Positions 5,060-43,017 of a DNA stretch of 43,017 nucleotides are shown piece after piece. Each line of letters starts with the position of its first letter. The first letter of the stretch is position 1. The DNA comes from Enterobacteria phage phiJLA23, in sequence record NC_047740.1; one strand, given 5' to 3'. The notes beneath the pieces are model-generated. The model had not been told where the DNA came from, made no database searches, and saw only the letters and a list, made by a program, of their open reading frames with translations. The position numbers and the translations under genes were made by a program.

Positions 5060-5626
5060 TTAACTAATGTCTTCTGCATACGAGCCTGCACTAAATACAG
5101 CACCACCAACAGTTCGATATCCATAAGGTAAGCAAACGGGGTTGCCTGCCGCAATTGTATTTACTGCTGAGCCGAATGCGTATGATGCTCGGTTGCTTGT
5201 TTGTGATGCCTGGTCATTCAATCCTGTAGCTTGTGGCGCCAATAACTGAGCCACTCCACCAGCAAGGAGGCCTACAGCCACTGGCAAAAGAACAGGAAAG
5301 AAGTATGATGCCACCAAAAGTACACCTCCAAGGATGGTCTGGAATAAGCCGCCAGATTTTCGACCTTGCGGGATTGGCATAATCCTAATTTCACGCACAG
5401 TCTCAAGGTCATTAATCTTGTGCTCGTTAACATTCTTACCGTCAACGAATACAGCAAACCTTGTGTTCTGGCCCACATGGCTACGCATGAAATCTTTAAA
5501 CTCAGGGATGTTTACAGACAGCGCCCGCATTGCCTCTGGAACCGTTTTAACGCAAAGCTTATGTAGCTTTCCAAACCTCCTGCCCAAACCTAATCCCAAC
5601 TTAACATCAATCACGTTCTGGGTCAT
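5060..5626 (-). CDS. Tail assembly protein (lambda I-like)
   Basis: RBS ggagg 9 nt before ATG 5626 (longest ORF starts 5635); hydrophobic Gly/Ala-rich C-terminus; follows K-like gene with short overlap. Confidence 0.6.
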   Translation of the reverse strand: MTQNVIDVKLGLGLGRRFGKLHKLCVKTVPEAMRALSVNIPEFKDFMRSHVGQNTRFAVFVDGKNVNEHKINDLETVREIRIMPIPQGRKSGGLFQTILGGVLLVASYFFPVLLPVAVGLLAGGVAQLLAPQATGLNDQASQTSNRASYAFGSAVNTIAAGNPVCLPYGYRTVGGAVFSAGSYAEDIS

Positions 5627-7150: not shown

Positions 7151-7165
7151 TAGCAATTAGTGCTA
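7151..7165 (-). promoter_or_regulatory. Isolated copy of palindrome TAGCA-N5-TGCTA at the M/L junction
   Basis: ttagcaattagtgctattt; overlaps M-like stop codon and lies about 23 nt before L start; no -10/leader module. Possible operator. Confidence 0.4.
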
Positions 7166-13883: not shown

Positions 13884-13968
13884 TTGTTTCGATTGTTTGA
13901 TTATATCTCAATAGCTACCAAAATAGCACCCCGANGGGTGCTTCTTCCTTGTCAAAAAGTGCTATTAA
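13884..13968 (-). promoter_or_regulatory. Terminator (13917-13945) plus TATAAT -10 and conserved leader; degenerate palindrome over capsid stop
   Basis: Hairpin gcaccc-loop-gggtgc then T-run on minus strand after capsid stop; TATAAT; leader as in other composite promoters. Confidence 0.5.
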
Positions 13969-23395: not shown

Positions 23396-23466
23396 TTCCT
23401 CGTCTAATTTCGATAAAGTAATGGTAACGCATCCTTGCGATGGATGTTTAGCAATTTGTGCTATTT
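23396..23466 (-). promoter_or_regulatory. Composite early promoter (palindrome 23449-23463, hairpin, -10-like box, leader ATCGAAATTAGAC)
   Basis: Same ordered module as 268-332. Confidence 0.45.
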
Positions 23467-23841: not shown

Positions 23842-24075
23842 TCACTTGTATTGGCTAGCCAGTTGGCAGCCTGATAGTGCCGTGCAAATCTGCTCGTACT
23901 CAAGCCAGGCCAAGTCCTCTTCCCACGGCAGTATATCTTCAAACTCCTGATTTCGAATCTGATTTACAACCTCTGTAAGCGATTCTGACGCGCTAAACAT
24001 CTTGCGGCTAAGGCAATGCATTAGTATAGCCCTAATCTCGGCAGCATGCTCTTCTGAAAGGTTAATGGTAATCAT
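23842..24075 (-). CDS. Hypothetical acidic protein (77 aa)
   Basis: ORF with helical acidic composition in early cluster. Confidence 0.5.
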   Translation of the reverse strand: MITINLSEEHAAEIRAILMHCLSRKMFSASESLTEVVNQIRNQEFEDILPWEEDLAWLEYEQICTALSGCQLASQYK

Positions 24076-24125
24076 GTTAGCTTCCTATCGTTTAGTTGTC
24101 ATTTGCTTCAATTATGATACTGAAT

Positions 24126-24356
24126 TTACTCGCTTCTACGCCGACCAGTGTAACCCTTACCATTCTCAATCCCCTCAGCCGCCTGAATAAGCGCCGCCGC
24201 CAGTTTGCGCGCTTGGTAGGCAGTATAGTGAGCAAGCGCACATCCGTCGCCATGGTTACCGAAGTTGATATCAATACTCACGATGCCTTCGTAATGTACT
24301 GAGGTTGACACCTCTGTGCGAGCGCCTGCGAAACCTTCAATAATTACAGCTTTCAT
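24126..24356 (-). CDS. Hypothetical protein (76 aa)
   Basis: Preceded by composite promoter 24370-24432 and RBS gagga. Confidence 0.5.
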   Translation of the reverse strand: MKAVIIEGFAGARTEVSTSVHYEGIVSIDINFGNHGDGCALAHYTAYQARKLAAALIQAAEGIENGKGYTGRRRSE

Positions 24357-24369
24357 GGTTATTTCCTCT

Positions 24370-24432
24370 TTGTTGTTGATAGGGTAATCATAGCTGACTA
24401 CCCAATTTATTGTTTAGCAATTTGTGCTATAT
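24370..24432 (-). promoter_or_regulatory. Composite early promoter (palindrome 24415-24429, TATGATTAC, leader TATCAACAACAAA)
   Basis: Palindrome also encodes the last residues and stop of the upstream gene. Confidence 0.45.
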
Positions 24433-24974
24433 TCACCATTCGGGAGAGCTTTCGCTTTCCGGTAGAACTGTATGGCCTTCTCCACCTCATCGGCATTATA
24501 GCCATGGATTGTTGTTTGCGGTGGCACGTAGTTTGAGCGTGGCACGTCGGATCGGCACTGACTGCACCAGTTTTGCACGTCGTCCTTATCCATCTCAACC
24601 AGGGCCGGATGAACATAAATCTTATCGCCAATGAGGCAAACAATTCCCGCCTCTTGTAGTTCTGGGATGATGTTATTTGTCAGGTCATGCATAATCCCTT
24701 CGCGCCCGACGAATGGCTGGACATTTCGTATTGCCTCGTATAGAGATCGAATGCCAACCACTCCATTCCAGCCATGGCGGCTAATCCTGCTAACTACGAC
24801 ACCGTATTTGTAGCTCAACTTGACGCACAGCATCTCTTCGGCGCTGGGCCAGAAATTGAATGATTGGCGGTATCCATTAGTACTGATTGCCACACGAAGT
24901 GGCGGCAGGTTATCTTGCCTGGCGACTTCCATCACCTGGTCATCAGTTAACTTATCCTCGTTGAAATCAAACAT
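24414..24974 (-). CDS. Hypothetical protein; truncated paralog of the P-loop ATPase 26758-28341 (shares its N- and C-terminal segments, lacks the ATPase core)
   Basis: N-terminus MFDFNEDKLTDDQVMEVARQDNLPPLRVAISTNGYRQS and segment VVGIRSLYEA...CLIGDKIYVHP align with both ends of the 527-aa protein; strong RBS aaggag. Confidence 0.6.
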   Translation of the reverse strand: MFDFNEDKLTDDQVMEVARQDNLPPLRVAISTNGYRQSFNFWPSAEEMLCVKLSYKYGVVVSRISRHGWNGVVGIRSLYEAIRNVQPFVGREGIMHDLTNNIIPELQEAGIVCLIGDKIYVHPALVEMDKDDVQNWCSQCRSDVPRSNYVPPQTTIHGYNADEVEKAIQFYRKAKALPNGEYSTNC

Positions 24975-25237
24975 TATTTAGTCTCCTTAATCATTTCCTG
25001 ATATGCGTTAATCATAGCTACCGCACCCTTCAGTTCATCTCCACTCATTCCTGCTACGCTGGGGAAAGCTTAAGTAGCCTAGCTTTAAACTCGCTTACCG
25101 CTTTCTCCCTTATTGGACTGTTTGTCTTAGCTCGNGGTTNCNTNNNNACNACGCNGAANTNCATNCAGAAGANNATTTTCTGTGCTGCGATGGACTTGGC
25201 TGCGTCGAATGTTTACCATTTATTTGAGGATTGAGAT

Positions 25238-25477
25238 ATGAAAATTCGCTGCACCAATTGCATTACAAGTACCGACAAGAAAATACTAACACCATTCGTA
25301 AAAGGCTCTTTATACGACGCTGAGCGTCTAATCATTAACGGCAAGGCAATCCCGAACGAATGGGTTATTAATGGCGCTGAGCGACCACACAAGCACGATT
25401 CTGGATGGATTGCCATTACAGGCTGGAAGGTTGGAGTGTTTATTCCTGGTATTGCAACTTTTGATGAGGTTAAGTAA
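25238..25477 (+). CDS. Hypothetical protein (79 aa)
   Basis: RBS gagga 7 nt before ATG; first plus-strand gene after divergent intergenic region 24975-25237. Confidence 0.55.
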   Translation: MKIRCTNCITSTDKKILTPFVKGSLYDAERLIINGKAIPNEWVINGAERPHKHDSGWIAITGWKVGVFIPGIATFDEVK

Positions 25478-25630
25478 ATGCTAAAGCCATCTGACTTGAA
25501 CTATTACGATCTAGAAACCATAGCCAAGTACAGCGGTAAGGGTTGGCCTGTTGGTGACTACTTCAAAGAAGATTTGATTGAGAGCTTCAACATCGTCCAG
25601 AAGGCAATTGCAAAAGCAGCAAAGAAATAG
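25478..25630 (+). CDS. Hypothetical small protein (50 aa)
   Basis: ATG overlaps upstream stop (TAAATG); stop TAG lies in palindrome copy 25628-25642. Confidence 0.35.
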   Translation: MLKPSDLNYYDLETIAKYSGKGWPVGDYFKEDLIESFNIVQKAIAKAAKK

Positions 25631-25688
25631 CACGAATTGCTAAAGCCCTTCGGGGCTTTTATTGTATATTCATCTCATCGAAACGAAA
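25626..25688 (+). promoter_or_regulatory. Composite early promoter (palindrome 25628-25642, terminator hairpin gcccttcggggc + T-run, TATATT, leader CATCGAAACGAAA)
   Basis: Palindrome centre about 42 bp upstream of predicted start. Confidence 0.5.
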
Positions 25689-25702
25689 AAAACAAAAGGA
25701 AA

Positions 25703-26062
25703 ATGATTATGATTAACATGATCACTAAAAANGGCATCANCTCAGATAACAATCTGTTTAAAGCTCGCGTTAAAGATGGTATTGAGCAAATCAAGATTCA
25801 TGGTAAATGGCAAAATCTCACTGAGCGGGGGCGTTACATCAAGACTAAGACTCTTTATGTCACATTTGTTAACCATAAATCAGGAGTATCAAAGTCATTC
25901 AAGCAAGGTCGTCGCTATCAGGTAGAAATGACCGCATCTCTTGGACAGAACGCTGGTAAAATATTTGATGAAGATGGTGACTCATGGACGCTGATTCGCT
26001 CTGAAGATGTTGGATTTACAACTGTTTGCGGAACTTATAAATTCGAGAGCCAATACAAATGA
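25703..26062 (+). CDS. Hypothetical protein (119 aa)
   Basis: ATG 25703 after RBS aaagga (ORF track starts at a non-ATG codon, 25637, inside the palindrome). Confidence 0.55.
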   Translation: MIMINMITKXGIXSDNNLFKARVKDGIEQIKIHGKWQNLTERGRYIKTKTLYVTFVNHKSGVSKSFKQGRRYQVEMTASLGQNAGKIFDEDGDSWTLIRSEDVGFTTVCGTYKFESQYK

Positions 26063-26253
26063 ATGAGACAGTAAGAATTTACATAACAAAAGATTCAATT
26101 TATTGCAAGTCTATACAACACGGCACTAAGTACAGATACTGCAAAGATAGAGGCTATTTTTGCGTGGTTGATTTCATTACTAGAAAATGGTTGCTTGAAA
26201 CTTTCATAGATAAAATGCCTAGTAATAAGCTATCATCTGGCGAAAGGTTTTAA
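26059..26253 (+). CDS. Hypothetical Cys-containing protein (64 aa)
   Basis: ATGA overlap with upstream gene. Confidence 0.5.
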   Translation: MNETVRIYITKDSIYCKSIQHGTKYRYCKDRGYFCVVDFITRKWLLETFIDKMPSNKLSSGERF

Positions 26254-26255
26254 TT

Positions 26256-26312
26256 AATAGCACTTTTTGCTAATGACACTACCCGCTTCGGCGGGTATAT
26301 TTGTTTCCATCA
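26256..26312 (+). promoter_or_regulatory. Composite early promoter (palindrome 26258-26272, hairpin acccgcttcggcgggt, TATATT, leader CCATCAAGAAGACAAAC)
   Basis: Same module; starts 2 nt after upstream stop. Confidence 0.45.
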
Positions 26313-26338
26313 AGAAGACAAACACTAAGGTGAACAAA

Positions 26339-26455
26339 ATGAAAAACATCTCTAAAGCAGTTGATGCGGTAATGGAACAAGTAATTAAGTTTGGTTTCTT
26401 TGGCTTCATGGGCGCAATCGCTGTTGTAGTTGGCAAATGTCTGGTTGGTCTTTAA
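26339..26455 (+). CDS. Small hydrophobic membrane peptide (38 aa)
   Basis: RBS aaggtg before ATG 26339; C-terminal FGFFGFMGAIAVVVGKCLVGL. Confidence 0.4.
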   Translation: MKNISKAVDAVMEQVIKFGFFGFMGAIAVVVGKCLVGL

Positions 26456-26517
26456 TGGCACTTTTTGCTAAAGACCTTAACAACAAAAATTGATATATTC
26501 TCTTCATCGAAACGAAA
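26454..26517 (+). promoter_or_regulatory. Composite early promoter (variant palindrome TGGCA-N5-TGCTA 26456-26470, TATATT 26494-26499, leader CATCGAAACGAAA 26505-26517)
   Basis: Same module, left arm one mismatch. Confidence 0.45.
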
Positions 26518-26537
26518 TACATTAAAAGGGCTAAAAA

Positions 26538-26717
26538 ATGGATATCATGACTACTATCGAAAACATCAAACCTGGCATGATGGTAAAAATGGGGCCACTG
26601 TTCCGCAAAGTACTTCACGTTGACCTTAAGGAGAATATCATCACCGTAATGATTAGAGGTCGCGCAAAGCTGTATCTTCCTCATAAAGGTCAGATGATTG
26701 AAGTTCGTATCAAGTAA
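26538..26717 (+). CDS. Hypothetical small protein (59 aa)
   Basis: RBS aaaaggg before ATG 26538; terminator-like hairpin gccccttcgggggc 26724-26737 follows. Confidence 0.45.
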   Translation: MDIMTTIENIKPGMMVKMGPLFRKVLHVDLKENIITVMIRGRAKLYLPHKGQMIEVRIK

Positions 26718-26757
26718 ATAATCAAGCCCCTTCGGGGGCATTTAGAGAGAGATGATA

Positions 26758-28341
26758 ATGTTTGATTTTAATGATGACAAATTGACTGTTGAACAAGTAA
26801 TGGCTGTTGCCGCTCAGGATGGATTACCTCCTTTACGTGTTGCTATTAATGCGAACGGTTATCGCCAGAGCGCATCATTCTGGAAAGCTCCGGTTGAGAT
26901 TGATTCTACTGGCGACAAGTATCCTGTTATCTCGCTTGGTAACGACTATGATGTAGTTGGCAAACTATCAAGCAACATTGCTCGTTCTGTTCAGTTTCCT
27001 GAATCATCTGCTTATATGCACTTCCTTGGTTGCATCTCGGCAGCTATGTTAGGTCGCTTTACGGTTGAGTATCACGGAACTCAACAACCAACATCACTGT
27101 ATGTAGTGACCAGCCAGCCTCCATCAACTGGTAAATCCGCCATTAACTCGCTGTCTCTGGCTCCAATGATTGCAGAGACTGAGCGACTAAACGATCTGCG
27201 TAAGCGTGACCGTAAAAAGATTATGGCCAAGCTGTCGGCTCTGGCTAAAGAAATGAAGCAGGAGAAGTCGCCTTCTGAGATGGCTGGTTTGTTTGAGGAG
27301 AAGGAGGAGCTGGAAGATAAGCTCGAGAAACTTTGCGACATCGTATTCCCTGTATCTGATACTACTCCTGAAGGTCTGGCACGCATTAACCATCGTCAGG
27401 GTAGCTTCGCTGTCATCTCGGATGAGGCGACGAGCGTCAACTCACTGCTTGGCATGACCTATGGTGATGGAACAAAGAAAACAAACAGCGAACTGGTACT
27501 TAAGGCCTGGGATGCTGGTAACGTATCTATCGCGCGTGCGAACGCAGAGAACAACATGAGCTTTATTGCTATGGGGTGTATTTCTGTAATTGCGCAGGAT
27601 GAAACAATAGTCGCAATCATGAATGCTGGTGCTCGCGGTATTGGTGTATCCGAACGTTTCTTGCTTGTGCGTGAAAAGTCATTCCTTGGTGAGCGTGTTT
27701 TCGTCGATGATAATGGCGAGTCAACATATGAGCCGATTGACGGAGCGTTGAAGGCTGATTACTTCCGTCTTGTTCATGAAATTATGAGTGAGCAAGATGT
27801 GAAGTTGACTATTAGTAACTCAGCAATGAAGCACCTTAACCGTGCTCGACAGGAAATGGAGCCACACCTTGCGGATGGCGGCAAGTATTCACACACAATG
27901 CTCCGTGGCGCACTAGGTAAAATGGATAAGCAGGTTATTCGCCTTGCTGCCGTTCTTCACACCATACGTAACTGGTTTAATCCAAATGGCGGTAGTCCGC
28001 AGAAGTCCAGGGAGATTGGACTGGAAACGATGCAGGAGGCTTTATTGATGTTTGAAGAACTTAGCAAGACTTACTTATCTTCTGCTAACGCAGCTGGTCA
28101 TGCTGGCGATAACGCTGAGATGAACAAGTTAATTGATATCCTTATCAAGCAAGGCAAGAACAGTAAAGGAGTTGTGGGTTTGCGCTCACTTTATGAAGCT
28201 GCGCGTAAGGTTCGACCTTTCGAGTCACAGGCTGGTGTTATGGCTAAAATTAAAGACCACTTACTCCCGATGCTTGATGATAAAAACTATACCTGCCTGA
28301 TTGGTGACAAGGTATATATCAATCCACGGCTGCTGGGGTAA
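26758..28341 (+). CDS. Replication-associated P-loop ATPase (putative initiator or helicase-loader type)
   Basis: Walker A SQPPSTGKSA and Walker B-like FAVISDEATS; N- and C-termini homologous to the 186-aa protein at 24414-24974; start at second ATG (MFDFNDDK) by paralog alignment. Confidence 0.65.
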   Translation: MFDFNDDKLTVEQVMAVAAQDGLPPLRVAINANGYRQSASFWKAPVEIDSTGDKYPVISLGNDYDVVGKLSSNIARSVQFPESSAYMHFLGCISAAMLGRFTVEYHGTQQPTSLYVVTSQPPSTGKSAINSLSLAPMIAETERLNDLRKRDRKKIMAKLSALAKEMKQEKSPSEMAGLFEEKEELEDKLEKLCDIVFPVSDTTPEGLARINHRQGSFAVISDEATSVNSLLGMTYGDGTKKTNSELVLKAWDAGNVSIARANAENNMSFIAMGCISVIAQDETIVAIMNAGARGIGVSERFLLVREKSFLGERVFVDDNGESTYEPIDGALKADYFRLVHEIMSEQDVKLTISNSAMKHLNRARQEMEPHLADGGKYSHTMLRGALGKMDKQVIRLAAVLHTIRNWFNPNGGSPQKSREIGLETMQEALLMFEELSKTYLSSANAAGHAGDNAEMNKLIDILIKQGKNSKGVVGLRSLYEAARKVRPFESQAGVMAKIKDHLLPMLDDKNYTCLIGDKVYINPRLLG

Positions 28342-28345
28342 TTAA

Positions 28346-28681
28346 ATGTTCATCCTTGATGTGTTCAAGTTCTGCGAGAGCTACGAAAAGTTTAACAGGC
28401 AGCACCTGGCGGTATTCATTTACCGCCACAAAGAATGTGAAAGAATGGCTAAGGCAGCTGGAGTTAATGCGCGTTACTTTGCATCATCTGCGTCAAAGGA
28501 GTTTCTGGCAAGATGCATGACTGAAGGTTACATCGATGGAGTTAATGGCAGTTACTGGAGCAAAGGAAGCACGAAGCGACCATTCGGTTTTAGCTTTAGG
28601 TGCCTCGGAGGTGAGAGTGATAAGTACACCAATGAGATGATGACCATAAAAGAAATGACAGACGACCAACTGTTCGCGTAA
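28346..28681 (+). CDS. Hypothetical protein (111 aa)
   Basis: ORF 5 nt after ATPase stop; ends at bidirectional terminator. Confidence 0.5.
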   Translation: MFILDVFKFCESYEKFNRQHLAVFIYRHKECERMAKAAGVNARYFASSASKEFLARCMTEGYIDGVNGSYWSKGSTKRPFGFSFRCLGGESDKYTNEMMTIKEMTDDQLFA

Positions 28682-28685
28682 AATA

Positions 28686-28710
28686 AAGGAGCCATTAGGC
28701 TCCTTTTTTG
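28686..28710. terminator. Bidirectional terminator (hairpin ggagccattaggctcc, T6)
   Basis: Between convergent genes ending at 28681 and 28695. Confidence 0.7.
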
Positions 28711-29099
28711 TTTCCTGCGAATCTTAAAGCGAAGTAAGTTAGCAAACCTGAAACTAATCCAGCCAGAATACCCCAGACTAAAGAGTCAACCCCAGAGTTT
28801 TCAGTGCTATGAATTTCAATCTTTTCAGCTGTTATTGTGTTAGCTGAGAGACCCGTAGCAGCAGTCTTTTTATGGCTTGATGAATCTACATCTCTGTTAG
28901 TTGAGTTGCGCATATCGCTCTCTGTTGAGCTAGATTTGTCTGTCTGGCTGGATAATCCAACGCCAGTTTTCTGGTTTGACTCGCCAACCTGCGCCGTTGC
29001 CTCGACGCCATCCTTTGCTGGTAAGAAATCAGAAATGGCTGACATAGCAGAGCAGCCAGTCAGTGATGCAATTACCAGAACTACAATTCCGAGACGCAT
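28695..29099 (-). CDS. Unimolecular spanin (u-spanin, T1 gp11-type)
   Basis: N-terminal lipoprotein signal with lipobox LTGC plus C-terminal transmembrane helix LVWGILAGLVSGLLTYFAL in one polypeptide; directly after endolysin. Confidence 0.75.
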   Translation of the reverse strand: MRLGIVVLVIASLTGCSAMSAISDFLPAKDGVEATAQVGESNQKTGVGLSSQTDKSSSTESDMRNSTNRDVDSSSHKKTAATGLSANTITAEKIEIHSTENSGVDSLVWGILAGLVSGLLTYFALRFAGNKKGA

Positions 29100-29564
29100 A
29101 GCTTAATCTCCGCGTTACGCCTGTTAACCAGGCCTTTGCTAACAACTTTNTTACCACCAACGCTGATTTTATTCCATAGATAACGCCTCGCATCCTCCCC
29201 TGATATCACCACGATTTATGCGCCTTATAGCAGTTGAATTGCGCATTGCACTGGTTCCAACATTGAATGAAAAACTGTACAGCGCCGCCCTGGTGCTAAC
29301 TGGAACATTAACCTTCAGCGCTTTATCTACAGCAGCTCTATGAATTGAAAGGTGCTTCATCAGGAGTGCATCGCATTCTCTCTGGGTGTACTTTTTACCG
29401 AGAATAACATCAGGACCAGTGATTCCCTGGCAAACAGTCCACACTCCAGCAATATCTCTGTAAGGCCTGTACTTAACTCCTTCATGCTCATTCAGGAACG
29501 GAATAGCTAATGCCATGGCTCCAGCCACAGCCGAACCAATGACCTTATTCTTGAAGCTCATCAT
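29081..29564 (-). CDS. SAR endolysin (T4-lysozyme-like), frameshifted in this assembly
   Basis: N-terminal signal-anchor-release segment; catalytic spacing E..D(+9)..T(+6); annotated frame stops at 29169 but +1 frame continues to 29081 with lysozyme-like C-terminus (GLVNRRNAEIKL). Confidence 0.7.
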
Positions 29565-29776
29565 TTACTCCTGATTCTCATTGCCTCTCGAATGTCACCA
29601 TCCTCAAGTGCTTTATGGAGCGCCTTACTGTCACGCCATCGCAGCCATGCGCCAAAAATACCAAAGCATACGGCGATAACTAAGCCGATAATGCCGATGA
29701 TTGTGTTGTCAGATAAACCGCCGCCCATAGCTACTCCGCTACCGGATAAGGCGGCTGCGTCATAGAAATGCTTCAT
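29561..29776 (-). CDS. Holin (putative)
   Basis: 71 aa with hydrophobic helix and charged C-terminus; ATGA-coupled upstream of endolysin; RBS aagagg. Confidence 0.6.
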   Translation of the reverse strand: MKHFYDAAALSGSGVAMGGGLSDNTIIGIIGLVIAVCFGIFGAWLRWRDSKALHKALEDGDIREAMRIRSK

Positions 29777-29806
29777 GTTGCGGCCTCTTTAAGTTGATTT
29801 GATTAA

Positions 29807-29866
29807 ATAATACCAGATATTAAACTTTGACATAAACGAAAAAAGGCAGCCTTAAAGGCCGCCTGT
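29807..29866 (-). promoter_or_regulatory. Terminator hairpin (29845-29865, T6) followed by TATTAT -10-like box (29807-29812) upstream of lysis cassette
   Basis: aggcggcc-ttta-aggctgcc then tttttt; -10-like hexamer; RBS; holin ATG. Confidence 0.45.
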
Positions 29867-29884
29867 TTTCAAGTTGATGTTTCT

Positions 29885-30064
29885 TATAAGTTAGTCTGCG
29901 ATAATGAATTCCACCAATTCTCCATCAATCGGGGTGAAGATCCAAGTCATGTCATCTCCATAAATCTTGTAATTACCATCCCCCTGGTACTCACCACTGT
30001 AAGGGTTGTTTACAGTGAAAGGCAGTGATTTTGATTTGTTGCTAACGCAGAATAATTTAGTCAT
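29885..30064 (-). CDS. Hypothetical small protein (59 aa)
   Basis: ORF filling the gap between 30077 and the terminator; below ORF-track cut-off. Confidence 0.35.
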
Positions 30065-30076
30065 TTTGATAATCTC

Positions 30077-30265
30077 TTAACGGTTTACGCAAATAAGTGT
30101 GTTTACATTAATTGGGAAGCAGTTACCGCCCATGGTCTTAATCATTACGAACGTACAGCTAGGGTAATACTCAAGGCTTGTGGCCTTAACTTTTTGCCGT
30201 TGGCAATTTGAGAACAAAACCTCATCACCCACCTTTACCATATCAGCTTTAATTGTTTGCAACAT
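30077..30265 (-). CDS. Hypothetical protein (62 aa)
   Basis: ORF coupled to upstream gene. Confidence 0.5.
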   Translation of the reverse strand: MLQTIKADMVKVGDEVLFSNCQRQKVKATSLEYYPSCTFVMIKTMGGNCFPINVNTLICVNR

Positions 30266-30450
30266 TAACGCTCTCCAAGTGCCGCAAGGATTGCATAAGC
30301 GATCTCACGTGCATTCTTAGCAGTAAGGTTAATAGTGTCAACCTTTACATCTTCTTCGCTAGTTCCGTAAGCCTGTGCAATCCGAAATGTCTTACCAAAA
30401 CCAACATCTTTAACTTCAATCTGTGCATCTGATTGTGTGAACTTAGCCAT
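30265..30450 (-). CDS. Hypothetical protein (61 aa)
   Basis: Preceded by composite promoter with leader CATCAAAACAAAAC and RBS gagagga. Confidence 0.5.
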   Translation of the reverse strand: MAKFTQSDAQIEVKDVGFGKTFRIAQAYGTSEEDVKVDTINLTAKNAREIAYAILAALGER

Positions 30451-30451
30451 C

Positions 30452-30520
30452 TTTGTATCCTCTCGTTTTGTTTTGATGGAGTAAATATACCCCCTCTTTT
30501 NATTTGTNTTTTANTTNGTG
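30452..30520 (-). promoter_or_regulatory. Composite early promoter (TATATTTAC, leader CATCAAAACAAAAC; palindrome degraded by Ns)
   Basis: Module order conserved; upstream half-site region contains Ns. Confidence 0.35.
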
Positions 30521-30843
30521 CTAGTTCNTGTNTNCNTTNTNNNTNNNNTTTCTAGCGTATTCATCATCTCCTCAAGCTTCTCTGCATCAATAGAGGACTT
30601 AACCCATTGCAACTTCACATTGCCATCATTATCAACAAGGCTAGATACACCTTTAACCATGTAGCCCTGAGGAATTAGGTTACTCACATCGCGACCGTGA
30701 CCATCCCCAGCCTTAGCCAACTTGCTGCGACGCAGCTCTACGTTACGAATATTCATACCGTACTTCTCTGCGATTGCCTTGTTAGTCATACCGTTAGCCA
30801 GTTCTTGCTTTAACTCTTCGTTGGTGATTTTAGCTATAGACAT
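30511..30843 (-). CDS. Putative HTH DNA-binding protein (3' end uncertain, runs into N-run)
   Basis: N-terminal helix-turn-helix-like segment TNKAIAEKYGMNIRNVELRRSKL; ORF passes through Ns 30490-30550. Confidence 0.45.
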   Translation of the reverse strand: MSIAKITNEELKQELANGMTNKAIAEKYGMNIRNVELRRSKLAKAGDGHGRDVSNLIPQGYMVKGVSSLVDNDGNVKLQWVKSSIDAEKLEEMMNTLEXXXXXXTXTSXX

Positions 30844-30931
30844 TATTTAATTTCCTGTTAGCAGATTATGAAGTACATGATTATAAAGGTTAATGGCATA
30901 GCCATCAACGGTAGTAATGTTTTCATCTGAA

Positions 30932-31000
30932 TCGTCTCTCGTTTCGATGAACACACTATACGCCATCCATGGCGATGTGTTTTAACAAAAAGTGCTATTT
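30932..31000 (-). promoter_or_regulatory. Composite early promoter (variant palindrome TAACA-N5-TGCTA 30983-30997, hairpin cgccatccatggcg, TATAGTGTG, leader CATCGAAACGAGAGACG)
   Basis: Same module; about 100-nt leader before the HTH gene. Confidence 0.45.
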
Positions 31001-31252
31001 AACTTCTTTTAGCCAGTAATCAAGAAACTCAGTTTCAAGCGCAGCAATTGCTGGAGAATACTCACTAGGCATCATCATATTGCAGCCAGGTGAGTAGTAC
31101 ATCAACTCAGCCTTACCAATCTCAATTTGCACCAGTACATCGAGGTAGTCCGGAGGAATCCACTCAGAGAAAGGAATCTTCCGATAAGGCTTCTCACCAA
31201 AAAACACAACCTGATACTTACTCTCATCAAAATCCAGACCAGGTAAATTCAT
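30995..31252 (-). CDS. Hypothetical protein (85 aa)
   Basis: ORF; stop TAG inside the palindrome copy. Confidence 0.5.
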   Translation of the reverse strand: MNLPGLDFDESKYQVVFFGEKPYRKIPFSEWIPPDYLDVLVQIEIGKAELMYYSPGCNMMMPSEYSPAIAALETEFLDYWLKEVK

Positions 31253-31488
31253 TTCTTCGCACCTTTCTTAAATATCTTCTTACCTTCCTCACGATACATT
31301 GCGAGGCTAGGCGTTGCTGGAACTCTTACATACTTGCGTGGCCGCTGGTTCATATAACTAAACTTCCCATTGAAAACTACAGATATGTCATCAATATCAA
31401 AGTATTTACCTATCATCTTGATGTCATCCTGCAATCCCGCCTCTCCACAATGCGCCCATACAGCGGCGCGTCCGGTTTCAACTATCAT
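31249..31488 (-). CDS. Hypothetical protein (79 aa)
   Basis: ATG 31488 overlaps upstream small ORF stop (ATGA); ORF track starts at 31533. Confidence 0.45.
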   Translation of the reverse strand: MIVETGRAAVWAHCGEAGLQDDIKMIGKYFDIDDISVVFNGKFSYMNQRPRKYVRVPATPSLAMYREEGKKIFKKGAKK

Positions 31489-31610
31489 AGGCCGTAAGCC
31501 ATTTTTAAAGCTTCTCGAGCGCAAATCCAGCAATATTCAGATCCAGTCTTAACTGCGTCATTTGCGAAAGACTGCGCAATCTCGAACATCTCTTTGTCTA
31601 TAATTTTCAT
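31485..31610 (-). CDS. Hypothetical small protein (41 aa, CxxC)
   Basis: First ORF after composite promoter 31612-31686; RBS gaggg 7 nt before ATG 31610. Confidence 0.35.
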   Translation of the reverse strand: MKIIDKEMFEIAQSFANDAVKTGSEYCWICAREALKMAYGL

Positions 31611-31611
31611 C

Positions 31612-31686
31612 TCTTAACCCTCTCATTTGCTGATGTAATTAATATAATCCATCCTTGTATTTTAGTTTTAACAAAAAGTGCTATTT
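31612..31686 (-). promoter_or_regulatory. Composite early promoter (variant palindrome 31669-31683, TATATTAATTAC, leader CATCAGCAAATGAGAG)
   Basis: Same module; palindrome overlaps upstream stop. Confidence 0.4.
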
Positions 31687-32297
31687 ACTCATAAACAAGA
31701 AAACTTACATGCTTACCTTTCGCATCATTACACCCGTAGTACCCATCAAATTCATTATGTAACTTCCATGCAAATCCGTCATCGCTAACTATTTCAACCT
31801 GGTCATTAATCGGGTCAAGTTTGAATTCATACTCATTGAGCAGGGTGAATGAGCCGTTCGTCATTACGCAAGTCGCAGTAATCATGAAAAAATCCTCCGG
31901 GCAATCTTTCTTCATTTCTTCGATATCAGCAATCATTCGGTCNNNCCATGTTTCGATATCAGTGTTCAGATAACCCNCTTCTNAACTATTTAAACCNGTT
32001 CATTAATCGGGTCAAGTTTGAATTCATACTCATTGAGCAGGGTGAATGAGCCGTTCGTCATTACGCAAGTCGCAGTAATCATGAAAAATCCTCCGGGCAA
32101 TCTTTCTTCATTTCTTCGATATCAGCAATCATTCGGTCGCGCCATGTTTCGATATCAGTGTTCAGATAATCCTCTTCGAAACTATAATCAAGACACCAAG
32201 CTAAATCCCAAACATCATTTTTATATCCAGCTTTACTCAACTCCTGCGCCACCATTGCCTGAAAGAGTTCCCATTGCTTATCAAAGGTTAATTTCAT
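31685..32297 (-). CDS. Hypothetical acidic protein (about 155 aa in the true genome; interrupted by an artifactual ~198-bp tandem duplication)
   Basis: ORFs 32079-32297 and 31685-31936 share ...RMIADIEEMKKDCPEDF; copies differ by homopolymer length and Ns at the junction. Confidence 0.45.
31786..32181. repeat. Tandem ~198-bp duplication with N-rich junction (probable assembly artifact)
   Basis: Unit 31786-31983 repeats at 31984-32181; Ns at 31943-31997; A6 versus A5 run between copies. Confidence 0.7.
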
Positions 32298-32491: not shown

Positions 32492-32504
32492 TTTGTTTCT
32501 CTCT

Positions 32505-32568
32505 CTTCGTTTCGATGAAGTAACTATATCGCATCCTTGCGAAATCTCTTTAGCAATTCGTGCTATTT
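32505..32568 (-). promoter_or_regulatory. Composite early promoter (palindrome 32551-32565, hairpin atcgcaaggatgcgat, TATAGTTAC, leader CATCGAAACGAAG)
   Basis: Palindrome centre about 42 bp upstream of predicted start; also encodes ...STNC-stop of VRR-NUC gene. Confidence 0.5.
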
Positions 32569-32939
32569 GATAGATAATCTGTAATTGCCAACTTAAACAT
32601 TTCAAACCCATAACAGATTGCTGCGTAACCTCCTGTTTCTGATACCTTTTCCAGGAACTCCTTTTGCTCCTTTGAAACCTTGCTATCTGATTTTATTGCT
32701 CGCTTAAGCTCTATTGCGGCAAAGCCATTTGGTCCAATCAGTAGAATATCTGATACACCCTTAATTACTCCCTCCTGCTTGTCCTTCATTGCTGTGCCGA
32801 TAGACTTGAGACCTTCATTCTTCACGTGAAAAGCAAATATCTCTGGATGGTTGTGGCGAACCCAAGCTATTGAATTTATTTGGTGAACAACCTCTTTAGC
32901 CTTGTCCGTGCTTGTTTTGTCGTGAAAAACCTTAACCAT
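32550..32939 (-). CDS. VRR-NUC domain nuclease
   Basis: 129 aa with VRR-NUC-like motifs (GxPD-type SDILLIGPNG, AIELK); coupled to helicase gene (stop/start overlap at 32939). Confidence 0.65.
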   Translation of the reverse strand: MVKVFHDKTSTDKAKEVVHQINSIAWVRHNHPEIFAFHVKNEGLKSIGTAMKDKQEGVIKGVSDILLIGPNGFAAIELKRAIKSDSKVSKEQKEFLEKVSETGGYAAICYGFEMFKLAITDYLSNSTNC

Positions 32940-34896: not shown

Positions 34897-34966
34897 TTAA
34901 TGTTCGTTCGATTGACGATATAATAACAGCCATATAAACCAATGTTTAACAAAAAGTGCTATTGAG
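34897..34966 (-). promoter_or_regulatory. Composite early promoter for helicase operon (variant palindrome TAACA-N5-TGCTA 34947-34961, leader CAATCGAACGAAC); in divergent region abutting HTH gene RBS
   Basis: Palindrome ends 6 nt before the RBS gaggtgag of the plus-strand HTH gene while at about -42 of the helicase promoter. Confidence 0.5.
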
Positions 34967-34974
34967 GTGAGAAA

Positions 34975-35448
34975 ATGGATTCAATTGACAAGCGTACTCT
35001 TAATGGTAACAACGGAACAATTCGCACAGAAGACAAGAAGCCGCGTAAGCGTCCATCAGGTTACTATGTACTAAAGGATGAAGTGAGAGCGGGATTAAGG
35101 GCGCGCCTTGAGATTGTATTGGACTTCTACGGCAGCAAGGCCAATCTAGCTAAGCAGCTAAAGGTTACGCGCCAGGCTGTAGAAGAATGGTGTAAGCGGG
35201 GAATGATTTCAGCTCGCGGCGCACAGCTTGCGCATAATCGATATAAGCGAACTGGCGAGGGGTTCAGGGCTACATTCTGCCGACCTGATTTACAGTTCGA
35301 CGGTAACGGCAAGCCTCTAACACTGCGATGCAAGAAGCGTCAGATGCTTCGAGTTGTTACAGAAGCTGAGTTAGCAACCAAGCCGCAGCGTAAATCATGG
35401 CGAAAGGTTAAGAAAGAAAGAGAAGAAGCACGAAAAGCTAAAGAGTAA
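34975..35448 (+). CDS. Putative HTH transcriptional regulator (Cro/YdaS-like)
   Basis: HTH-like segment SKANLAKQLKVTRQAVEEWCKRG; basic C-terminus; RBS gaggtgag; terminator 35454-35485 follows. Confidence 0.6.
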   Translation: MDSIDKRTLNGNNGTIRTEDKKPRKRPSGYYVLKDEVRAGLRARLEIVLDFYGSKANLAKQLKVTRQAVEEWCKRGMISARGAQLAHNRYKRTGEGFRATFCRPDLQFDGNGKPLTLRCKKRQMLRVVTEAELATKPQRKSWRKVKKEREEARKAKE

Positions 35449-35453
35449 AAATT

Positions 35454-35485
35454 AAGGTTGTGCCATAATCGGTACAACCTTTTTA
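35454..35485 (+). terminator. Rho-independent terminator (stem aaggttgt/acaacctt + T-run)
   Basis: 8-bp stem, T5 tract, after HTH gene stop. Confidence 0.6.
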
Positions 35486-36502: not shown

Positions 36503-39220
36503 ATGGCAATTTATGACGCTGGAACTGCATCGCTTGCAGCTGACGGAACTGTAACTGGTGTTGGCACCACGTGGAGGCAACCACTAACGCTAATCCGAGT
36601 TGGCGCAACAATGATTTTTAACACCACCCCGACAAGCATTGTTACTATCGCTGAGATTTTAAGCGATACAGAGATTCGTGTATTCAATGATAAAGGTTTT
36701 ACTGCGCCAGCTGGGACTCAGTACTCAATCCTTGCTCATGACGGAATTACTGTCCAAGGTCTTGCTCAGGACGTTGCTGAGACACTTCGTTATTATCAGT
36801 CCCGTGAAACAGAGGTTGCAGCGGCAGTTGATGCTTTTAATCAATTTGATTCTGATTCTTTCCAGCAAAGCGTAAATAATGTCAACATGCAATCTCAGCA
36901 AGTTGCTGTTGATGCTGCTCAAGTTTCTTCTGACAAAGATCAGGTATCTTCTGATAGGCAGTTAGCTGAAAGTAGCGCTAACTCGGCTTCCTCTTCAGCT
37001 ACAATAGCAAGCTCTGCTGCGGCTTCTGTGTCATCTGCTCTTGTAGTTGATTTCTCAAATGGTGGAGAAATAAACTCAAGAACTCAGCCTGCAATTTACT
37101 TTAATGACAATCATGTTTCGGTTTATTACTGGTCTGGTAGCGTTCCAAAATCCATACCACAAAACTCATCACCACAGTCTACAGGTGGTATTGGAGTTGG
37201 TTTTTGGATTCAACAGGATTACACAAGAAGGTTTGAATCAGTATCAGCAATGACAAACTCTGCCAGAATTTATGACTTAGAGGTTGTCTATTGTGATTCT
37301 TACATTGGTGGTCTTGGTTATGGTGGTGGGTTCTTTGTTTGTAAGCCGGAGTCATCTTTATCATATGGATTATCTTCAGGATTGGTTTTTGAATCAAGTA
37401 CAGGTTATTACTGGGAAAGAATCTGTAGCGGGGAGCTGTCGCCTTGCGAACTTGGGGCCATTAAGTCATCGACATCAGACTCAACGACACAGATACAGCA
37501 AATCCTAGACTCCGGGCTGGCATTAAAGCTTGATAGCGACTACATGGCATCAAACCTGGTAATGAGAAATAAATCTTGCTCTATAATTGGTTTTGGCAAG
37601 CACAAGTCAAGAATAACTCAGCTTAGTTCATCAATTGGCTCTTTAATTGAGGTTTCTGATTCTTGCTCGCTCATTCATATTGAAGGTATTGCTCTTTACG
37701 GCACTGGAGCCCAGCAAGACACGGCGTTTACTGATGGTACTGCTGGGATTTACATCCCTACGCCGACTGGGTTATCAACCAATTACCCATTCAACACTGG
37801 TGCTGACCCTAGGAGGGACTTAACGATAAGAAACACTCACATTGCTGGGTTTGATGTTTACGGAATTTTCGTTGCTGCTGGTAACTACTCTCCTGTTCTT
37901 GATGATGTTCTTATTCAGCACATAAAAAAAGACGGATTGATTAACGAAACAACAGACTTCACATGGAATAACATACAGGTAAACACCTGTGGAAGAAATT
38001 GTCTAATACTTAGGAATGCCGGAAACTGTAGGATTGTTGGCGGTAAGTTTATTTGGTCGGGTTGGTCGGCTTATAATGAGCTTGATGATGCTTATGGCAT
38101 CCTGATTGATAACTGCCAAAACATCACCATGTCAGCTATAGAGGCGCAGGATTGCGGTGGTGACGGTGTTAGAATTGTAAACTCTAGAAATGTGGTATTT
38201 AATGGATTAAATAGTAACAGGAACAGCATAAACTCAAACTACAGAGATTATAACGTTTCGTTTTCAAATAGCTCTGTAAGAATCTATGGTTTTGTTGGGC
38301 TTAACTATGTATCTAACAATGGCGATGGAAGGCCAACTTCCGCTGGCAACTTCAGATTCCTTGACTCAAGATCTGATGTTGTGATCGATGGGGTTGTTGA
38401 ATCTGGTTACTTTGGCCCAAATTTCTCAGGGGACACTAACTATGTTGCTGAGTATTCAGGAAACCTGAAGATAAACGGACTGATAGACAAAAGGAAGACA
38501 AGAATTAAGCCAGCAAACGACACTTCAGCTTTTGATGGGGTCTCTAATACACCAGTATTCGCCGCAGCGGCATCATCAGTTGGGCAGCAATATTGGCTAA
38601 GGCTTTCACAGGCAAATAAAGATAAGATTATATGCACTGGATTTGACCCGTCACTAGGTTTCACCGCTACATGCAATATATCGCCGACCATAACTGTTGC
38701 TGAAGACTTTAACCTTATAGCTATAGGGACTGGTTTTGGAGTTAATAGTAATGCTCTTTACTTGCAGTATAACGTGATGGCATCAGGAGAACACAGTGTC
38801 TCATTGTTAATATCAGCATCAGGTGAAACAAGAGTTTTATCAGGTGTGTTGCCAGTCTCATCAAGAATGGTCAATGGTGGTACTTACAATATTGCTCTTG
38901 GTTTTGATGTATCTGGTAAGGTTTGGTGGAGCATCTTAAACCTGAATACTGGATTTAGAGTTAGAAGGTCATTTGATTCTCAGTATATAGATATTGATGT
39001 CAGACCTATACTAACAACAGCTGGTAACTATGTAACCATGTATTCAGGTCAAGGCGCTGGTGATGTAGCTTGCTCTGGATATGGCTTTGGTGTTTACGTT
39101 GGCAGCTATTCAGATGAGTCTGATTATTGCGCTTCAAGATACTATTCGCTTAAAGGTGGTGTTGATTTGACAAAACAATCAGTATTTTTGAGTTTGAATG
39201 GTGATGTAACGTCACAATAA
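36503..39220 (+). CDS. Lateral tail fibre / tailspike-like protein (predicted beta-helix, possible glycan-binding or depolymerase domain)
   Basis: 905 aa; conserved-looking N-terminal anchor, Ser/Ala-rich linker, long Asn/Gly/Ser-rich repetitive region typical of beta-helix fibres; RBS aggag. Confidence 0.7.
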   Translation: MAIYDAGTASLAADGTVTGVGTTWRQPLTLIRVGATMIFNTTPTSIVTIAEILSDTEIRVFNDKGFTAPAGTQYSILAHDGITVQGLAQDVAETLRYYQSRETEVAAAVDAFNQFDSDSFQQSVNNVNMQSQQVAVDAAQVSSDKDQVSSDRQLAESSANSASSSATIASSAAASVSSALVVDFSNGGEINSRTQPAIYFNDNHVSVYYWSGSVPKSIPQNSSPQSTGGIGVGFWIQQDYTRRFESVSAMTNSARIYDLEVVYCDSYIGGLGYGGGFFVCKPESSLSYGLSSGLVFESSTGYYWERICSGELSPCELGAIKSSTSDSTTQIQQILDSGLALKLDSDYMASNLVMRNKSCSIIGFGKHKSRITQLSSSIGSLIEVSDSCSLIHIEGIALYGTGAQQDTAFTDGTAGIYIPTPTGLSTNYPFNTGADPRRDLTIRNTHIAGFDVYGIFVAAGNYSPVLDDVLIQHIKKDGLINETTDFTWNNIQVNTCGRNCLILRNAGNCRIVGGKFIWSGWSAYNELDDAYGILIDNCQNITMSAIEAQDCGGDGVRIVNSRNVVFNGLNSNRNSINSNYRDYNVSFSNSSVRIYGFVGLNYVSNNGDGRPTSAGNFRFLDSRSDVVIDGVVESGYFGPNFSGDTNYVAEYSGNLKINGLIDKRKTRIKPANDTSAFDGVSNTPVFAAAASSVGQQYWLRLSQANKDKIICTGFDPSLGFTATCNISPTITVAEDFNLIAIGTGFGVNSNALYLQYNVMASGEHSVSLLISASGETRVLSGVLPVSSRMVNGGTYNIALGFDVSGKVWWSILNLNTGFRVRRSFDSQYIDIDVRPILTTAGNYVTMYSGQGAGDVACSGYGFGVYVGSYSDESDYCASRYYSLKGGVDLTKQSVFLSLNGDVTSQ

Positions 39221-40369: not shown

Positions 40370-40380
40370 TTCTATCTCTC

Positions 40381-40445
40381 TTTGTTGTCGATGAGGTAAC
40401 TATACCCCATCAATTTAATACCGTTTTAGCTATTCGTGCTATCTT
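40381..40445 (-). promoter_or_regulatory. Composite early promoter (variant palindrome TAGCA-N5-AGCTA 40427-40441, TATAGTTAC, leader CATCGACAACAAA)
   Basis: Same module; palindrome encodes ...STNS-stop of exonuclease gene. Confidence 0.45.
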
Positions 40446-41665: not shown

Positions 41666-42049
41666 TTATTTCAACTTAAGAATCTCGCTATTCTTATCAA
41701 CTAGATTAGCAATAAGCTCATCTTTAGCCTTTAACTTTTCGCAGGCAACCTCAAGCTGAGCCTGATATTTGTAAACCACCTCTTGAGAGTCATGGTAACG
41801 ATTTGACTCGAACTTAACATCGAAGTATTGCTCATCAAGTTCCGCAGGATTTCCACACTTATCCATGCTCTTAAACATGAACTTCTCAATCGCGTAATAG
41901 TTATCCTCAGCTCTGTGCTGCGCGGCTCTATTTAGCATCTCCCTTATNNCCCTTANTACGTGGTCATGTCGCTTTCCCGTGATCTCGGCAATTTCAAGGC
42001 TACTCATGGTNACGTTTTCATCAATATTAATCAGATTCATATCTATCAT
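41666..42049 (-). CDS. Rha-family phage regulatory protein
   Basis: Motif MSSLEIAEITGKRHDHVxRxIREML typical of Rha N-terminal domain; start taken at ATG 42049 (ORF track starts 42079 on GTG); Ns at 41945-42010. Confidence 0.65.
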   Translation of the reverse strand: MIDMNLINIDENXTMSSLEIAEITGKRHDHVXRXIREMLNRAAQHRAEDNYYAIEKFMFKSMDKCGNPAELDEQYFDVKFESNRYHDSQEVVYKYQAQLEVACEKLKAKDELIANLVDKNSEILKLK

Positions 42050-42079: not shown

Positions 42080-42185
42080 TCCCGGATTTTGTGGTGCATT
42101 TTTTGCATCAAAAGCAGCACCACTGCTGCCGGTGAGTGCACTATAACCAATCAGGAATCATGCTTTTTGATTATTCGTGCTATTT
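42080..42185 (-). promoter_or_regulatory. Promoter region for Rha gene with half-site copy (ATAGCAC) and TTATAGTGC -10-like box
   Basis: One palindrome arm only; variant of the composite module. Confidence 0.3.
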
Positions 42186-42304: not shown

Positions 42305-42720
42305 GCATTTTCTCCTTAACAGGAAATCAAACATAGTATTTTAGTAAAACACAACAACATAGCTATAGAGAGTAGTTACAAGATATACATAGTAATATAT
42401 ATAATAATAATAATACTCTAAACCCTTATTATATAAGGATTTATAAATGTAACTAATGCGTATCTTCGCGTAAAAAGCGTATACAATTTTCAGCGGATGA
42501 GATTGTATACATCGAGTTACATCGGTTACGCGTATATAAAATAGCNNGTTTTNTAAAAAACANNACAGNAGNCTTTTCCTTTANTACCNCCATCAAAACA
42601 AAANATACTGACTAAGGAATAAAAAATGAANAACTTCATAAAATCAGCAATCATCGCAGCAGCAGAACTNATGACGGTAGNTTGTTTCTGGTGNNCNCCC
42701 CCTTGACGGNTGGTGGGGGC
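42305..42720. repeat. Contig wrap-around overlap, copy 2 (low-quality duplicate of ~42-470)
   Basis: Matches window start including lipoprotein 5' end; many Ns. Confidence 0.8.
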
Positions 42721-43017
42721 TNGTGGGGGGNGGTGNTGNGGTGNTTGNNTGGCGAAGGTGGTNAGGTAGGGTNATGGTGTGNGCTGTNGAGTTTGTTTAN
42801 TTCGTNTTGNGNNNGNTGNTTNNNAGNGTNGGTATGNGNTGGGACGGGTCGNGNNGCANNGTNNNGNGTNGANGNNNNGGNNGNNNGANNNNNNNNGNCN
42901 NNGNNNNNNANNGNNNANANNNTTNNNNNNNNANNNGNNNNCNNNGTANNGTATTTAGAATAGGAACGGAACGGCAGACAAGTAGGAAATTACAGTCGTG
43001 GTCGTTAGAGTTACCGG

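Follow-up and report, generated by a model that had tools for sequence, protein, structure and literature searches.

The genome of Enterobacteria phage phiJLA23 (NC_047740.1; 43,017 nucleotides (nt), hereafter the window) repeatedly carries a composite promoter-like module built on a conserved box, and the likeness of this box to the marbox, the site of the host activators MarA, SoxS and Rob, is the subject of this report. At the copy taken as focal here, the box opens with the TAG (25628-25630) that is the stop codon of an open reading frame (ORF) at 25478-25630, and is followed by a terminator-like hairpin (25642-25659; GCCCTTCGGGGC, then T-rich sequence), a sigma70-type -10 hexamer, a predicted transcription start and a start codon. 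A megablast search with positions 24000-32000 returned Escherichia phage C119 at 99.5% identity, along with many Rogunavirus genomes (T1-like, Drexlerviridae).

An earlier reading of the sequence (the original prediction) had proposed an early promoter element in at least 14 copies. All 14 modules were found, each co-directional with its following gene, and the palindrome TAGCA-N5-TGCTA occurs in seven exact copies in the window against 0.03 expected from shuffles. A genome-wide matrix search built on the window copies added two or three further boxes, at 7151-7165 (-), at 42542-42556 (+, with Ns) and, more weakly, at 5003-5017 (-). The centre of the palindrome lies at -42 or -43 from the predicted start in 11 of the 14 copies, which agrees with the class II activator position that had been suggested for it; the other three distances are -44 (13884-13968), -41 (the helicase promoter, 34897-34966) and -39 (30452-30520), the last because Ns corrupt that copy. 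The C119 counterpart of the corrupted copy is a normal module with 22-nt spacing, and the copy at 13884-13968 has a terminator between box and -10, with 44 nt from box to TATAAT. Canonical -35/-10 promoter-like sites are about as frequent in the early region of the window (29) as in shuffles (26.8), and public annotations of C119-type phages mark few sigma70-like promoters and nothing at the box element.

Anatomy of the module across Drexlerviridae

C119, T1, TLS and Rtp, representatives of four subfamilies, each carry about 20-25 copies of the box, which recurs in the most distant relatives fetched and in a Klebsiella webervirus; in Klebsiella phage Sweeny, box and -10 are arranged alike. In a scan of viral contigs, multi-copy matches were confined to contigs of 42-53 kilobases (kb), matches elsewhere being single and at about chance level, and the element is therefore family-specific and no general phage repeat, an alternative that the original prediction had itself raised. 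Its proposal of a phage-wide regulon is supported, as far as sequence goes, by the recurrence of the module before early and middle genes; the description of these genes as early is roughly right, but some copies lie in the late region before inserted genes and some boxes stand alone.

The module reads aaATAGCAC-N3-TTG(C/T)TAAA, 22 nt, a sigma70-type -10 hexamer and a predicted start at the A of CATC. We pooled 397 distinct modules across the family, of which the 348 with a -10-like hexamer were used for gap statistics. The gap between TTGCTA and the -10 is 22 nt in 257 of the 348 and 21-23 nt in 309 (89%), the shuffled control being flat. When modules are anchored on the -10, A-11 and T-7 are present in 100%, T-12 in 82% and G-14 in 81%, and the extended -10 motif TGn occurs in 39% against 6% expected. 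The predicted start has C at -1 in 71% and A at +1 in 82% of modules, with a median of 26.5 nt from +1 to the start codon. There is no -35 hexamer, since positions -35 to -30 read AAAACn. From these features the modules are predicted sigma70 promoters with extended -10 features and without a -35, as the original prediction had held. The leader that it had also included is the weakest part of the module: CATCGAAACGAAA occurs seven times in the window at no more than two mismatches against 0.91 expected, but the family-wide leader consensus carries at most about 0.8 bit per position.

One alternative is that RNA polymerase reads the box directly, without an accessory protein, either as an UP-like element, a role raised by the authors of a study of phage TLS (PMC11447400), or as a displaced -35 (TTGnTA). 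The TTG of the right half is conserved and A-tracts flank the box, as such a reading would like. However, the 22-nt gap is 5 base pairs (bp) more than sigma70 region 4 can span, and UP elements, which alpha-CTD contacts at -40 to -60, are A/T-rich, whereas the invariant positions of the box include G3, C4, C6, G12 and C/T13; we regard direct reading as highly improbable. TTGCTA as a conventional -35 was rejected, its 22-nt spacer being too long and no -10-like hexamer lying 17 nt downstream.

The palindrome, as first described, gives an incomplete account of the box. Its 5-bp arms, TAGCA and TGCTA, are indeed symmetric, but in a dyad test across the conserved positions the symmetry was limited to these arms, and C6, T10, the AA preceding the box and the AAA that follows it are asymmetric yet equally conserved (positions -1/17 and 0/16 are A/A, 6 is C and 10 is T; conservation is 85% at position -1 and 93-100% at the others). 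Only A or T is found at positions 8 and 9, and position 13 has C in 73% of boxes and T in 24%. In every module the GCAC end is distal and the AAA end proximal to the -10, so that the orientation of the box is constant. The box is unchanged across all Drexlerviridae examined, even where a Cro-like regulator encoded by these phages (see below) is only 30-45% identical. A record named Vibrio phage Vc1 (MT360682) has the same boxes and layout.

The box matches the host marbox

The consensus of the marbox shared by MarA, SoxS and Rob is GCANNWWNTGNNAAA (5'-gcannwwntgnnaaa-3'), a non-palindromic, orientation-specific site for which a published search tolerated two mismatches (PMC12052159); its CACN-7N-AAA form is read by the pair of helix-turn-helix (HTH) motifs of monomeric activators (PMC8811837). 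The phage box satisfies every specified position of this consensus, and its only variable positions are those that the consensus leaves free or marks W. Exact matches to the consensus number 11 in the window against 0.88 expected, and across the family 316 of the 397 boxes match in full and 388 with at most one mismatch.

[quoted passage not shown] By this host-derived matrix the phage boxes are the top 12 matches in the window, with scores of 15.6-18.2 where the 90th percentile of the host sites is 16.2, and 18 positions in the window score at least 13.8 against 0.83 in shuffles. The median family box, at 16.9, exceeds not only the host median of 11.5 but also that 90th percentile. Two boxes, at 23447-23461 and 24413-24427, read GCACAAATTGCTAAA, letter for letter the best host ChIP site. 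A longer consensus, AYnGCACnnWnnRYYAAAYn, is said to have been given by Martin et al. in 1999, the 20-mer reportedly lying 18-19 bp from the -10 of class II promoters; the tests here draw on the papers cited above.

The original prediction had assigned the box to one dimeric HTH protein of the phage acting on a palindrome. An asymmetric box that faces one way relative to the -10, and that fits the non-palindromic marbox of monomeric two-HTH activators, speaks against that assignment.

Promoter geometry and comparison with known systems

Class II marboxes lie in the forward orientation and overlap the -35 (PMC12052159); the class II site of micF is at about -41 (PMC8811837), forward-oriented host sites gather around -41, and no recognisable -35 is present in class II promoters (PMC10268841). 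The phage 15-mer that aligns with the marbox spans -47 to -33 from the predicted start, has its centre at -40/-41 and ends 20 nt before the -10. E. coli micF reads GCACTGAATGTCAAA, 20 nt, TAGAAT and then 7 nt to the annotated 5' end, so that its gap between 15-mer and -10 equals the mode of the phage modules. The likeness to class II marbox promoters such as micF thus takes in the same asymmetric site, the forward orientation, the overlap with the -35, a centre at about -41, the 20-nt gap, a sigma70 -10 and the want of a recognisable -35. By every sequence and geometry test run, the element belongs to the class II marbox promoters, binding of the activator being predicted.

The phage promoters also differ from their host counterparts. 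Where the host stress regulon consists of degenerate single sites, a virulent phage genome of 45-50 kb has about 15-25 near-identical, near-optimal copies, and the flanks of the phage box are conserved beyond the marbox consensus. Unlike host marbox promoters, those of the phages hold terminator hairpins in the spacer, and their box overlaps upstream stop codons.

Other activator-dependent promoters resemble the module in part. At galP1, a CRP dimer at -41.5 acts with an extended -10, the CRP site being a true 22-bp palindrome, TGTGA-N6-TCACA. Class II promoters of the galP1 type likewise have an activator site near -41 in place of the -35 and an extended -10 for core recognition, but the phage box is asymmetric and fits neither the half-sites nor the spacing of CRP or FNR. 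Among phages, the Mor and C activators of Mu recognise a dyad near -43.5, and MotA of T4 a box at -30, with AsiA. Their promoters likewise lack a -35 and have a good -10 and, upstream, a conserved box by which a temporal class is defined; these activators, however, are phage-coded, whereas no homologue is annotated or was detected in the phages considered here. A middle promoter of the T4 MotA type was rejected on distance, the TTGCTA of the phage box ending 22 nt from the -10 where the MotA box is about 12 nt away.

The sigma54 consensus is TGGCAC-N5-TTGC, with its GG and GC doublets 10 bp apart. A sigma54 promoter was rejected, as TAGCAC-N3-TTGC is 2 bp short and has AG for GG in 14 of 15 window copies. 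Sites of Lrp, CRP, FNR, IHF, Fis and DnaA do not fit as well as the marbox, and Lrp shares only the outer TAG...CTA.

Candidate readers of the box

Three HTH candidates had been put forward in the window. The ORF at 30511-30843 proved to be the N-terminal fragment of a DNA repair exonuclease and has no HTH, and Rha (41666-42049) is absent from the T1 and TLS annotations, whereas the box is family-wide. A hidden phage gene of the AraC family was likewise rejected: tblastn searches of these phages with MarA, SoxS and Rob (approximate query sequences) gave only matches at E > 1, and a Pfam scan of 40 non-structural C119 proteins gave no HTH_18 or HTH_AraC domain.

The remaining candidate, the Cro-like regulator at 34975-35448, is the most plausible phage protein to bind the box, in which case it might activate these promoters or later shut them off, and the marbox likeness would be convergent or reflect competition with host factors. 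It is the sole transcription-factor-like gene conserved family-wide (829 phage records). Its structural model has an all-alpha Cro fold in the core (pLDDT 89.5), matching Xfaso1 and N15 Cro at TM-scores near 0.7; nothing in it suggests a sigma, MotA, Mor or AraC fold. The gene is preceded by a sigma70-like promoter, with a consensus or near-consensus -10 and a weaker -35, in the 12 family members examined; this promoter corresponds to P57 of TLS, one of only three there. Its 5' untranslated region holds the reverse complement of the box of the helicase promoter, whose module is divergent from the regulator gene and overlaps that gene's promoter, and another box lies at the 3' end of the gene. 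An N-terminal motif, DKRxxNGNNGTxRGxDKKxRKR, is nearly invariant and predicted to be disordered.

Against this candidate, helix 3, which holds the usual base-reading positions and thus the putative recognition helix, varies strongly (TRQAVEEW, THGCIEQC, NGLRMVLW, KRHRVARW) among relatives with identical boxes. Operators of Cro dimers are symmetric and the phage box is asymmetric, and a protein unrelated to the host activators would have to copy marbox sequence, orientation and 20-nt geometry exactly. We also looked for co-variation of regulator and box, and found the box unchanged alongside the most distant regulator homologues compared, a result that speaks against the regulator and cannot prove a host reader. 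A link between the Cro-like regulator and the box is not supported, and reading of the box by a phage protein is in our judgement unlikely.

A box that has stayed invariant while the phages' own proteins diverged to 30-45% identity is what a conserved host protein as its reader would lead one to expect. From sequence, we infer that the most likely activator is the host's Rob, MarA or SoxS, with RamA in Klebsiella and Salmonella. Rob is constitutively made and has the highest affinity for the marbox (PMC10268841), and we favour it on both counts.

Spacer hairpins, stop codons and the box as RNA

The original prediction had also placed a hairpin of variable sequence in the spacer. Taken singly, the focal 80 nt show no better folding than shuffles (z = -1.3); the hairpin signal emerges only from pooled modules, where it is statistically real: between -34 and +14, the folding energy of 83 modules has a mean z of -3.0, with 66% of modules below -2, and the average over 309 modules is -12.5 kcal/mol, compared with -7.2 when 48-nt windows are drawn at random from the same genomes (p = 3e-51). 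In an intrinsic terminator, a T run comes after a G+C-rich stem-loop. In about 37% of modules the hairpin lies between the box and the -10 and ends at the -10, whose T-rich region then resembles a terminator tail, as in the focal copy. In about 39%, arms of variable sequence flank the -10, mostly without a T run (e.g. GATGGGGTA-TAGT-TACCCCATC in Rtp), and about 25% have no hairpin of at least five pairs. Such flanking inverted repeats, which by their sequence would place the -10 in the loop of a hairpin, are seen at 40399-40420 (-) in the window, at about 37810-37850 in Rtp and at 5150-5185 in TLS, some stems having G-T pairs. In the window, 3' of the regulator gene, a -10-like hexamer occupies the loop of a full terminator of the same design (35454-35481).

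At least 60% of modules have an upstream ORF that ends within the box or at it. When ORFs of at least 40 codons are considered, the box's TAG provides the stop codon in 164 of the 397 modules (41%), the TAA of GCTAAA in 47 (12%) and a TAA just before the box in 26; in the window, the TAA at 32550-32552, at the box of 32551-32565, is the stop codon of the ORF at 32550-32939.

A box at the 3' end of an upstream message could in principle act as RNA, the hairpin UAGCA-CNWWU-UGCUA (a 5-bp stem and 5-nt loop, the size of lambda boxB) serving antitermination, processing or stability before the terminator hairpins are reached. The box is invariably on the sense strand, its stem is present in the predicted fold of the focal region, and the T1 late region is rich in terminators and poor in promoters. 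Pair 3-13 is G-C in 289 boxes, G-T in 94 and otherwise composed in 12, the one frequent stem variant still pairing as G-U, and G-T is far above A-C overall. Yet there are no compensatory double changes, the sequence of the stem being fixed, and the C/T alternation at position 13 is that of the marbox Y in the longer consensus given above (the 15-mer of PMC12052159 leaves this position free). An RNA model cannot accommodate the strict spacing to the -10, a DNA element, and the focal 80 nt, as noted, fold no better than shuffles. A role of the box as RNA is thus scarcely probable at all.

Distribution of modules and lone boxes

The modules and lone boxes of the window are listed in Table 1 with the regulator gene. 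The window contains 230 Ns and is N-rich at 30452-30560 and 42500-43017; its end (42542-42650) is a diverged repeat of the module and gene start at 268-375, and the C119 exonuclease gene is present in truncated form as the ORF at 30511-30843. The N-rich stretches, the end repeat and the truncated exonuclease ORF suggest assembly noise or a mixed template.

Table 1. Modules, lone boxes and regulator gene in the window (the score is that of the host-derived matrix)
Feature	Coordinates	Strand	Box	-10 hexamer	Predicted +1	Score	Further details
Module	268-333	+	271-285 (15-mer 273-287)	TATAGT 309-314, after TGc	321	16.5	Start codon 355
Lone weaker box	5003-5017	-				15.9	At start of gpJ-like tail gene; without usable -10
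Exact box without promoter behind	7151-7165	-				18.0	
Atypical module	13893-13967	-	13950-13964 (TTGACA variant)	TATAAT ~13900-13905			Terminator hairpin; CAATCGAAAC leader
Module	23401-23466	-	23449-23463	TACCAT 23421-23426	23414	18.2	GCACAAATTGCTAAA
Module	24367-24432	-	24415-24429	TATGAT 24387-24392	24380	18.2	
Focal module	25625-25689	+	25628-25642	TATATT 25665-25670	25677 (A of CATCG)	17.1	Hairpin 25642-25659; start codon 25703
Module	26255-26321	+	26258-26272	TATATT 26296-26301	~26308-26310		Terminator hairpin 26280-26297
Module	26453-26518	+	26456-26470 (TGGCAC variant)	TATATT 26494-26499, after TGa	26506	16.9	
N-blurred module	30464-30526	-	30509-30523	TATATT 30484-30489	30477		
Module	30935-31000	-	30983-30997	TATAGT 30955-30960	30948		
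Module	31621-31686	-	31669-31683	TATATT 31641-31646	31634		
Module	32503-32568	-	32551-32565	TATAGT 32523-32528	32516	17.1	
Helicase promoter module	34900-34964	-	34947-34961	TATTAT 34920-34925	34913		
Conserved Cro-fold regulator gene (T1 gp23 family)	34975-35448	+		TATAAT			Own sigma70-like promoter
Module	40379-40444	-	40427-40441	TATAGT 40399-40404	40392		-10 within hairpin GATGGGGTA/TACCTCATC
Module, degenerate right half	42120-42185	-	42168-42182	TATAGT 42140-42145	42133	11.5	Upstream of Rha-like gene
Extra N-blurred copy	42539-42604	+	42542-42556				CATCAAAACAAAA leader 42591-42603

Boxes outside complete modules recur at particular places. One stands directly before the start codon of the gpJ-like tail gene in all four subfamilies (window 5003-5017 (-), T1 25022, TLS 24909, Rtp 23314), without a usable -10, and another is found ahead of T1 terS. 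In C119 (11081-11400), the counterpart of the box at 7151-7165 drives a small extra gene that is missing from the window, where the box abuts the next tail gene, and boxes may mark junctions at which gene cassettes have been gained or lost. HNH endonuclease genes and other genes inserted in the late region have box promoters of their own (C119 3731, Rtp 6317 and 21394, T1 41957); otherwise no sense-oriented box promoter is present in the core late operon, which runs from terS to the tail genes. Antisense boxes occur in late regions at T1 15085 (-) and 18849 (-) and at TLS 15041 (-), and two of them share a location upstream of the major head gene.

Boxes that stand alone with no -10 would fit a view of the box as a repressor or roadblock site, like the stoperators of mycobacteriophage L5, and of the -10 promoters as self-sufficient, and the extended -10 features could allow initiation without an activator. 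Stoperators lie scattered through transcribed DNA and keep no set distance to promoter elements. A gap of 22 +/- 1 nt between box and -10 in 89% of modules, however, marks a joint promoter element and no roadblock. These phages are virulent, with no repressor system annotated, and a stoperator would leave the exact match to an activator site, in activator geometry, unexplained; we consider this explanation very unlikely.

Proposed mechanism

Taking these results together, we think it probable that the modules are sigma70 promoters of the class II marbox type, served by a host activator of the MarA/SoxS/Rob family. In such a promoter, the 20-bp asymmetric box (about -50 to -31, core GCAC-N7-AAA) would stand in for the -35 hexamer, followed by the -10 hexamer, often extended, exactly 20 nt past the 15-mer, by a predicted start at the A of CATC and by a short A/C-rich leader of about 26 nt to the start codon. 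A monomeric two-HTH activator of this host family (RamA in Klebsiella and Salmonella) would bind the box in the forward orientation and contact RNA polymerase in place of the -35 contact, as in the solved micF complexes, and RNA polymerase would itself read the -10. Rob would be the favoured factor, with MarA and SoxS boosting expression under stress. The spacer hairpin would terminate the upstream transcript, to which the box would often supply the stop codon; the spacer would be free to take this part because its 20 nt between box and -10 presumably carry no recognition signal. A few canonical promoters would fire unaided, three in TLS, one of them ahead of the Cro-like regulator.

A broader proposition is that the virulent Drexlerviridae, including the Klebsiella weberviruses, entrust nearly all early and middle promoters to host MarA, SoxS, Rob or RamA, which would couple phage expression to antibiotic, bile and oxidative stress, while about 20 top-affinity sites per replicating genome could also soak up the activators. 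We see the case for this proposition as evenly balanced.

The case is drawn from sequence and geometry, and several points weigh against reading the modules as marbox promoters. In unstressed cells MarA and SoxS are scarce, and most Rob is sequestered in the absence of inducers (PMC2787020). T1-like phages nevertheless grow fast under ordinary laboratory conditions, where little of these factors would be free; basal activity from the extended -10, a small free pool of Rob acting on near-optimal sites, or another factor may account for this. The AA-T-A before GCAC and T10, T11 and T14 are almost invariant although they fall outside the marbox consensus, a tighter conservation than in host sites that may stem from a second reader, from the part played as stop codon or from selection for top affinity. 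Some records, that of Vibrio phage Vc1 for one, give hosts from outside Enterobacterales; should the recorded Vibrio host be correct, it would have to possess a marbox-binding activator. Finally, the lone boxes without a -10 (window 5003-5017 and 7151-7165; T1 8363 and 25022) are unexplained by promoter function.

Relation to the published repeat and significance

In phage TLS, a 21-nt direct repeat, aaATAGCACnnnTTGnTAAAA, has been described in 21 copies, oriented with transcription and placed some 76 nt upstream of start codons, with similar repeats in T1, Rtp and Rogue1; its function was left open, a stoperator, an enhancer site or an UP-like element being suggested, and the supplementary table lists only P01, P51 and P57 as sigma70-like promoters (German, Misra, Kropinski and co-authors 2024, PMC11447400). 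This repeat is the same element as the phage box, and the paper makes no link to a -10 at fixed distance or to the marbox. The repeat itself is thus known; what we propose as new is the connection to the -10 and to the marbox mechanism. In a limited literature search we found no publication linking the marbox to phage promoters, nor any transcription start-site or RNA-seq work on T1-like phages.

T1-like phages have no RNA polymerase or sigma factor of their own, few canonical promoters and about 20 terminators. A class II marbox with a -10 at fixed distance offers a concrete, testable mechanism for the published repeat. If it is correct, annotation pipelines could call these promoters directly, and the Drexlerviridae would be a clear case of a virulent phage family wired to a host stress regulon. 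Phage expression might then differ in strains that overproduce MarA, SoxS or RamA, a frequent trait of multidrug-resistant clinical isolates, and treatment with T1-like phages, the Klebsiella weberviruses among them, could be influenced by antibiotics or bile.

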